DNA from: Eledone cirrhosa
Taxonomy: Eukaryota
Assembly: GCA_964016885.1 (NCBI GenBank)
Contig: OZ024750.1
Coordinates: 29,884,001-29,948,000 of the forward strand
Reading direction: 5' to 3'
DNA: 64,000 bases
Of the stretch, positions 57,274-58,281 are shown in pieces. Positions within the stretch are counted from its first letter, which is position 1, and the number at the start of each line of letters is the position of its first letter. Under the pieces are notes generated by a model, which was not told the DNA's origin, made no database searches, and worked only from the letters and a program-made list of their open reading frames with translations. Both the position numbers and the translations under genes were made by a program.

Positions 57274-58281
57274 CTAATGAAAGTAAGTTTCTTCCTCTGA
57301 AAAATATAATTCATTAGATTCACCAATTGGGAAAATTGATTCACCAAATATTTTCGTCTTTCTCAAAAACTCATCAAGTTTGAAATACAAAAATGCTCGA
57401 CACCACAACATATGAATCAGTTCAGAATTATCAATATCTGCTATAGCATTAAGAAATTCTAGATAAAAATGAGGATAAAGTGATTTTATCAAAGGCAATA
57501 ACTGTTTTATCAAAATATTTTTATGTTCGTTTGATGTTAAAGGAACATTACGGATTTCATTTAAAATCCTCCGCCCTTGTCCTTGAGTTATAATTGGTGG
57601 AGATTTTTCCTCGGCTATTCCTTCGTCTGTGAGTGTCTCAACTCCTTCAAGCGTCGAAAATAAATCTTCTCCCAACAGATGGCGCTCAGCTGCTGATTCA
57701 ATTGGCTCATCTACATTGTCTAAACTGCTTTTTACTGTCAGTAATTGTTCCATTGAATTAACAAATATCTGTGAACGGATTTCATCAATTCGTATTCTAA
57801 GACAGTCAGTACATTGTAGAAGATGAAGAATAGCCGAGTTCTCCAGATATGTAAGTTTGTCAGTGATTATATCTGCGGCATCAGAACAATTATGTTGTAG
57901 TATGGACAGAAGTTTTACTTTGAGTAAACTGTTCAAAGGCTGCCGTTCCATAAGTAATTGTTGGGATACGTCATCCGAATCTGAAAAGTTTTTAAATATA
58001 TCAATAACTATAAGGGCCTCTTCCATTCGAGCATTAAAGAAGTGACGGCAGTTCAACATATGAAGAAGTTCGGAATGATGGAATGTAAATGTCATGACAT
58101 GAAGGATTTGTTTGGCCATTTTAGGATAGAATCGTTTAACTGCTGGGTACAATAGTTCACTGAGTATATGCTTTTGCTCTCCCGGGGTACTCATAACTAA
58201 GGATTGTAGAAATTTACGATGTGTATCCAGGGATTTCGAATTGGTAGTCTGTGGCTGTGTTTCAGGCTTTATCGAAAACAT
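57274..58281 (-). CDS. Protein of three tandem divergent MLLE (PABC) domains, no RRMs
   Basis: QKHILSELLYPAV...SELLHML...ARMEEAL; ...AADIITDKLTYLENSAILHLL...LRIRIDE; HKNILIKQLLPLI...IDNSELIHML...KLDE align to the PABP C-terminal QKQMLGERLFPLI...KITGMLLEIDNSELLHML...KVDEA. In-frame stop upstream. 5'-UTR acceptor tttttgccttcag at 58361. Confidence 0.82.
   Translation of the reverse strand: MFSIKPETQPQTTNSKSLDTHRKFLQSLVMSTPGEQKHILSELLYPAVKRFYPKMAKQILHVMTFTFHHSELLHMLNCRHFFNARMEEALIVIDIFKNFSDSDDVSQQLLMERQPLNSLLKVKLLSILQHNCSDAADIITDKLTYLENSAILHLLQCTDCLRIRIDEIRSQIFVNSMEQLLTVKSSLDNVDEPIESAAERHLLGEDLFSTLEGVETLTDEGIAEEKSPPIITQGQGRRILNEIRNVPLTSNEHKNILIKQLLPLIKSLYPHFYLEFLNAIADIDNSELIHMLWCRAFLYFKLDEFLRKTKIFGESIFPIGESNELYFSEEETYFH

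Follow-up and report, generated by a model that had tools for sequence, protein, structure and literature searches.

A gene encoding a protein of 335 aa, built of three tandem MLLE domains, was found on the minus strand of the window (i.e., the whole stretch of DNA analysed, 64,000 nucleotides), and its product is read here, with a probability of roughly one half, as a pseudo-MLLE scaffold that derives from PABP and has been neofunctionalised to bind a new partner. MLLE domains are readers of PAM2 and PAM2-like motifs, which they bind via one groove. Judged from the alignment of six family members, this groove has decayed in all three copies, and constraint appears to have moved to a stripe of His, Cys, and (Phe or Cys) at helices 4-5 and to an isolated relic of an MLLE helix 2.

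The coding sequence (57274..58281, minus strand; ATG at 58281, TAG at 57274-57276) was delimited by sequence, Pfam match, and five full-length relatives, and the ORF runs from 58281 to 57274 over 335 codons without an internal stop. It is preceded by a candidate splice acceptor and a 79-nt untranslated leader (58282..58378, minus strand), with a pyrimidine tract and AG across 58378-58361 (AG at 58362-58361), which are read from the sequence and predicted to be in use. The leader lacks an ATG, and each of its three frames is interrupted by stops (among them an in-frame TAA at 58300-58302), so that nothing spliced to the candidate acceptor reads into the ORF. A candidate splice donor (CAG/GT; 58738..58742, minus strand) of an upstream non-coding exon, likewise taken from the letters of the DNA, would with its cut at 58739 make a 379-nt 5'-UTR intron (58361-58739), and an AATAAA polyadenylation signal that is presumably used lies about 73 nt past the stop codon (57196..57201, minus strand). 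The single coding exon proposed in the initial annotation is consistent with the sequence and with the start of all five relatives at the same Met, and in-frame splicing to RRM exons is contradicted by the leader stops in all three frames at the candidate acceptor. RRM-like sequence was likewise absent from the 64-kb window, where tblastn with an RRM-bearing query matched this ORF only, and a Pfam scan of 114 of the 414 complex ORFs with at least 45 aa yielded neither RRM nor HECT; the four N-terminal RRMs that characterise PABPC are therefore found neither in the ORF nor in the window, in which 5.7 kb of DNA lie upstream of the gene. An exact 11-bp inverted repeat (57262-57272 / 58289-58299) flanks the stop and start codons; a repeat that long was obtained in 4 of 1000 mononucleotide shuffles of leader plus trailer, a figure for a feature chosen post hoc in A+T-rich DNA.

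The nearest downstream neighbour is a small DUF4748-like gene, the last coding exon of which (53836-53982, plus strand; Pfam E 1.4e-4, below the cut-off) has an acceptor, a stop, and an AATAAA and ends near 53982; as it lies on the plus strand and the MLLE gene on the minus strand, the two genes converge, and the neighbour can serve as a synteny marker. Further along, an intronless ORF of 257 aa (46181-46954, minus strand) carries short tandem repeats and ends in CVIL, which we take to be a CaaX-like motif, and over its first 125 residues it matches protein clusters that are mostly from molluscs (Atlas 0.94-0.95). A DUF4732 match (Pfam E 5.8e-8) marks an exon at 22911-23636 (plus strand), which possibly belongs to one gene with a 202-aa ORF upstream of it (20990-21598, plus strand; no Pfam match). 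Also present are a LINE (27525-30459, plus strand), whose endonuclease and reverse transcriptase lie in two frames, two copies of a reverse-transcriptase element (35812-41419, minus strand; only a weak Pfam RVT_1 match) that is presumably Penelope-like, and a fragment of an IS1595/Merlin-type transposase (50400-50702, minus strand).

Pfam MLLE (PF00658) matched the protein at E 7.5e-16 and 58.3 bits (cut-off 27) in three stretches and was the sole family over its curated cut-off, while neither RRM nor HECT was among the Pfam families up to E 10. Searched individually against PDB sequences, the repeats matched the human PABPC1 MLLE at E 7e-7 (D1), 0.0035 (D2), and 2e-7 (D3), and a profile from 33 control MLLEs found three domains in all six family members (28-48 bits for D1, 10-22 for D2, and 15-31 for D3), compared with a top domain score of 5.9 bits over 2000 shuffles. 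D1 (residues 27-96; 57994..58203, minus strand) is closest to the canonical domain, has a one-residue insertion in helix 3, and has H74, C78, and F81 as invariant residues; D2 (residues 113-175; 57757..57945, minus strand) is the most divergent copy (H153, C157, and C160 invariant); and D3 (residues 233-306; 57364..57585, minus strand) has a PABP-linker-like QGQG lead-in (H290, W293, C294, R295, and F297 invariant). In a structural comparison with 48,161 chains, the top three hits were MLLE domains, one per repeat, namely the Leishmania PABP1 MLLE 6h7a for D1 (Z 10.3, rmsd 2.2, 76 aligned), the Rrm4 MLLE2 7pze for D2 (Z 8.8, rmsd 1.5, 62 aligned), and the UBR5/EDD MLLE 3ntw for D3 (Z 8.9, rmsd 1.7, 61 aligned). 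In the full AlphaFold2 model, helices are predicted in each repeat, as in the four-to-five-helix MLLE fold, and the three helical units are connected by linkers of low confidence (mean pLDDT 57.7, pTM 0.37). As both structure models were low in overall confidence (mean pLDDT 57.7 and 57.9) and such Z scores are common for helical bundles, most weight is carried by the sequence matches; Foldseek gave nothing at E <=0.001, though its top rows were MLLE structures, and the Atlas cluster search returned MLLE clusters only, at lead level (0.81-0.82). Three tandem MLLE copies, as initially annotated, are thus borne out by Pfam, PDB sequence matches, and fold, and so is the absence of RRM and HECT, by Pfam on the ORF and the window scan. 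The KITGMLLE signature is indeed altered in all three copies, and the motif SEL(L/I)HML is kept by D1 and D3, D2 having SAILHLL; at the DNA level, the helix-4 codons of D1 and D3 are linked by a repeat of 26 nt, the copies of which lie in frame, 648 nt apart.

Five full-length relatives of 327-354 aa, 44-60% identical and of the same layout, were aligned with the window protein. In the listed order P0002, P0004, P0003, P0005, and P0006, the identities to the window protein were 60, 50, 59, 44, and 45%. P0002 (Octopus sinensis LOC115227873) and P0004 (Argonauta hians), the two named relatives, are both from octopods. All six proteins share the start Met and the three domains; PF00658 scored 48-57 bits in all five relatives, and Pfam matches to HECT, UBR, or RRM were found neither in them nor in the window protein. 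Among 1.84 billion representatives, the whole profile was matched by P0002 and P0006 only, so that the family looks narrow, and at E <=0.001 no longer or fused form was among 8000 scored candidates of 621-2000 aa, which is weak evidence. The window protein fell outside the group of P0002, P0003, and P0004 in an unsupported tree, so that it may be a paralogue or stem from an octopod that is more distant. Invariant columns were concentrated in the domains and the relic (20/70 in D1, 22/63 in D2, 12/15 in the relic, 26/74 in D3) and rare in linkers and tails (1/16, 0/23, 1/19, 0/29) and at the N-terminus (2/26). In a neutral simulation with substitutions only, runs that ended with an open frame numbered 1 of 1000 at 60% identity and 0 of 1000 at 46%. 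Common layout, invariant columns, and frame retention together argue for a gene under constraint, and the locus is almost certainly a real, constrained gene; the initial view of it as a stand-alone gene is likewise supported.

A description of the octopod triple-MLLE family was not found in the literature searched, which included few subscription papers. The identifier LOC115227873 is absent from the main texts searched and from the readable supplements of PMC9699675 and PMC9712504, as well as from the readable supplements of PMC11202624, which use other identifiers and hold no per-gene table. In O. sinensis gonads, a gene annotated Pabpc1 (EVM0003110) is strongly female-biased according to the accessible part of PMC11202624 (values 0.36 and 829.37); this gene may be an ordinary PABP paralogue.

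For the assessment of the groove, the repeats were placed on PABPC1 numbering via PDB alignments, and PAM2 contact residues of the PABPC1 MLLE were taken from the available text of PMC2854688; ten key contacts were scored (Gln560, Gly563, Glu564, Phe567, Gly579, Lys580, Thr582, Met584, Leu585, and Leu586). The first control set (33 domains) had been picked by a groove motif, by which conservation at 580-586 is inflated; a second set of 51 domains (50 distinct) was therefore picked by profile from 14 other multi-MLLE proteins, the profile itself still being built from the first set, and 47 of these domains cover 563-599. The 18 family domains keep 0-4 of the ten contacts each (D1 3-4, D2 1-2, D3 0-2; 34 matching cells of 180), whereas at least five are kept in 45 of the 47 controls (median near 9; the other two keep 3), i.e., the contrast held with the profile-picked set. 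Over the 18 domains, Gly579, Gly583, and Gln560 are retained in none, Lys580 in 1, Gly563 in 3, Thr582 in 5, and Met584 in 6, and the full set of canonical PAM2-reader residues was found in no domain of the family. D1 keeps Phe/Tyr567 and Met584 in 6/6 proteins, Glu564 in 5/6, and is the only domain with a Gly563 equivalent (3/6 proteins); in D2, an invariant Lys stands where the Gly of the Phe pocket is expected (position 563); and D3 has Ile or Leu at 563, Lys at the Glu564 position in 6/6, and Glu at the Lys580 position in 5/6. The substitutions in the groove differ between relatives (mean pairwise identity of 0.45-0.57 at pocket positions vs 0.71-0.78 at 589-605), which is unlike a maintained binding site. 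From these residues, D2 and D3 very probably do not bind canonical PAM2, and D1 probably does not either, but a variant ligand stays plausible for D1, alone among the copies. Patterns of PAM2, PAM2L, or the eIF4E motif were found in none of the six family proteins, and self-inhibition by an internal PAM2 was dropped for that reason.

The region 589-605 (helix 4 with the turn that leads to helix 5) shows the opposite trend, with 29 of 51 domain-positions invariant vs 11 of 54 in the pocket (Fisher p 1.4e-4), and with 16 of 33 vs 11 of 51 (p 0.016) after exclusion of six positions taken as core or capping on general structural grounds; positions enter these tests as if independent, and the sample of six related sequences is small. 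The greatest gains over the controls were at positions 602, 595, 596, and 599. Cys599 is present in all 18 family domains vs none of the 47 controls, the same counts hold for Phe or Cys at 602, and His595 is found in all 18 and in 23 of the 47 controls; the three residues are spaced i, i+4, and i+7. The helix 4-5 face stands at even odds of being a new binding site, and the residues at 595, 599, and 602 may instead mark a re-packed core. As Cys599 is common to all repeats, copying from one already altered MLLE is suggested. A single origin of the three repeats would fit and is weakly supported by the repeat tree (ultrafast bootstrap 88, SH-aLRT 82, the latter falling to 60 without the 599 and 602 columns; 58 columns, with a long-branch warning).

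Residues 199-213 (57643..57687, minus strand) form the most conserved stretch of the protein, which lies in a low-confidence linker in both models and aligns with helix 2 of the MLLE domain. The partial fourth copy (ERHLLGEDLF) of the initial annotation was accordingly confirmed as MLLE-related, but as a single helix-sized relic and not as a domain. Equivalents of both Gly563 and Phe567 are present in 6/6 proteins in the relic alone, and its helix-profile score was matched by none of 5000 linker shuffles and none of 1000 whole-protein shuffles; its HMM score was only 1.4 bits, with 51 of 2000 shuffles as high, and the relic alone had no match among PDB sequences. After an AlphaFold2 refold of residues 110-315 with six sequences, its pLDDT was about 30, as in the full model, both runs having used only 5-6 aligned sequences. 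Since it is unstructured in both models, the relic is taken as probably serving as a linear motif for docking. Directly after D3 lies what may be a second helix-2 relic (residues 308-322; 57316-57360, minus strand; score 21.3, reached by 8 of 2000 whole-protein shuffles and 1 of 5000 tail shuffles). The tails of the relatives score only -4 to 4.7 here and have no invariant position, and this second relic appears to be decayed or a chance match.

With PABPC1 (PF00658; PDB 3kus, 2x04), the octopod protein has in common the fold, the sequence family, a helix-4 motif, and, ahead of D3, the linker lead-in, at 27-40% identity to the PABP-like domains of P0011, but it has three copies plus relics, is without RRMs, has mostly lost the PAM2 contacts, and has Cys599 and Phe/Cys602 as new and invariant residues. 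With UBR5/EDD/HYD it shares the MLLE fold (D3 vs 3ntw, see above), but the sequence match is weaker (E 0.043 and 0.34 vs 7e-7 for PABPC1), and the HECT and UBR domains of UBR5/EDD are absent from the window protein and its five relatives. A parallel in architecture is Rrm4 of Ustilago maydis, which also has three tandem MLLEs on flexible linkers (PMC9249222 and PMC11572963, as far as available) and degenerate copies without the pocket Gly, its MLLE2 being the best fold match of D2. Rrm4 MLLE1 and MLLE2, which are without an equivalent of Gly563, do not bind PAM2 or PAM2L, their partners are unknown according to the discussion of that paper, and Rrm4 was the first multiple-MLLE protein known to its authors (accessible text of PMC9249222). 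In the available text of PMC11572963, the exchange Q733A in Rrm4 MLLE3 weakens binding, and extra helices and variant motifs can alter MLLE specificity. Unlike the octopod protein, Rrm4 has three RRMs and one pocket-keeping copy that binds PAM2L; a copy of this type, with Gln coordinator, pocket Gly, and aromatic residue, is absent from the octopod family. By analogy, the octopod protein would work most like the degenerate accessory copies of Rrm4, and its closer sequence match to PABP points to an origin independent of Rrm4.

The initial statement that MLLE is normally a single domain was too strong, as Rrm4 has three and 11 of the 14 other proteins scanned have at least three. Eight of these 11 are without RRM or another notable fold family above the cut-off (P0007, P0008, P0009, P0012, P0014, P0025, P0030, and P0033; 3-7 MLLE stretches and no RRM match, as here), so that MLLE-only repeats recur in predicted protein sets; the accessible part of PMC4574140 holds no mention of MLLE-only proteins. 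In contrast to the octopod family, the domains of these proteins mostly keep the canonical groove, and Cys599 is found in none of them. Several of them are made of near-identical repeats, which may be recent duplications or gene-model artefacts, and fused gene models may account for P0010 (MIF4G, MLLEs, RRMs) and P0017 (MLLEs, F-box). P0009 and P0016 are related to each other and have many MLLE copies, some of them degenerate (3-6 of 10 contacts), and are a possible independent case of MLLE repeat divergence. What is distinctive of the octopod family, as far as can be told from the alignments, is uniform groove loss combined with a shared new Cys, kept over deep divergence.

Five other explanations were weighed against a pseudo-MLLE scaffold with a new partner. 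That the ORF is not stand-alone, being either a pseudogene or the terminal exon of a PABP- or UBR5-like gene of greater length, is favoured by the short upstream stretch within the window, but it is hardly credible given the leader stops in all three frames between candidate acceptor and ATG, the window free of RRM-like sequence, the start Met common to five relatives of similar length, frame retention far beyond the neutral simulation, and, as weak evidence, the lack of longer forms among the candidates scored. The multivalent PAM2 decoy of the initial annotation, which would sequester eRF3, PAIP1/2, Tob, PAN3, or GW182 from PABP, fits three PABP-derived MLLE folds without RRM and the part of the Phe pocket that D1 keeps; the glycines, Lys580, and Thr582 of the groove are, however, lost from most or all of the 18 domains, the pockets of D2 and D3 are filled by bulky or charge-reversed residues, and pocket positions differ among relatives. 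In view of the contact loss and of the precedent of Rrm4, the decoy was not borne out and is very unlikely.

A hierarchy like that of Rrm4 would leave the binding of a variant PAM2-like motif to D1, with D2 and D3 in accessory roles and the relic completing or extending a domain; it would account for D1 as the most canonical copy (40% identity to the PABP-like P0011 domains; 3-4 of 10 contacts), for the Gly563 and Phe567 equivalents of the relic, and for the precedent of extra helices in Rrm4 MLLE3 (available text of PMC9249222 and PMC11572963). It is nevertheless rather unlikely, as the Gln560 coordinator, which is needed by Rrm4 MLLE3, is missing from D1 in 6/6 proteins, helix 3 of D1 carries an insertion, and the relic is unstructured in both AlphaFold2 runs, shallow as their alignments were. 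Zinc bound, inside a domain or between domains, by His-x3-Cys in each repeat (His-x3-Cys-x2-Cys in D2) could lock the domains together as a metal-bound scaffold, for which the universal His595 and Cys599 at i and i+4, a candidate third ligand at i+7 in D2, and the further invariant histidines H68 and H201 speak; yet His595 is inherited, position 599 is Ser in most controls, and the pTM of 0.37 gives no fixed domain arrangement, which leaves this option improbable. Residue 599 may merely cap helix 5. If the domains were fold-only spacers without a ligand, with the conserved residues as a re-packed core and the function in the 15-residue motif, the relic would be expected to be the most invariant stretch and many invariant domain positions to be hydrophobic, as is the case; this reading is very improbable because polar and aromatic positions that vary in the controls are fixed here (His595 and Cys599, Trp598 and Arg600 in D3, and the RQPLN lead-in of D2).

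An origin from the C-terminal end of PABP, as initially proposed, is supported by the sequence matches, among which PABP MLLEs rank best, before UBR5, and by the lead-in of D3, whose QGQ aligns with the PABPC1 linker preceding its MLLE. The neofunctionalised binder that had been named as a fallback idea is favoured by groove loss with constraint apparently moved to another patch. In the scheme proposed here, the C-terminal end of a cytoplasmic PABP (linker plus MLLE) would have been the source of the gene, the single coding exon suggesting a processed (retro-) copy, and internal multiplication would have yielded three domains and the helix-2 relics. Canonical PAM2 motifs would no longer be read (or, by D1, only a variant motif), and the protein would act as a flexible multivalent adaptor, each repeat of which offers a new protein partner the same stripe of His595/Cys599/Phe-or-Cys602 (PABPC1 numbering), with the invariant relic as a short docking motif within a disordered linker; that it has a role in mRNPs or translation control is an assumption based on ancestry alone. 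A more far-reaching version, a cephalopod-lineage pseudo-MLLE family in which a new, possibly zinc-bridged His/Cys face of every repeat binds another class of partner and the relic functions as a switch or for docking, is conceivable but unlikely; if true, it would add a second binding mode to the MLLE fold and a lineage-specific mRNA-control regulator to animals known for RNA-level innovation.

The significance of the finding is considered moderate, as tandem MLLEs have precedent and no trait has yet been linked to the gene. An MLLE-only protein in which the groove has decayed and another patch has been fixed would provide a natural test for a second binding surface of the fold, and this small single-exon cephalopod gene, which would recycle a translation-control domain, is an easily expressed example.
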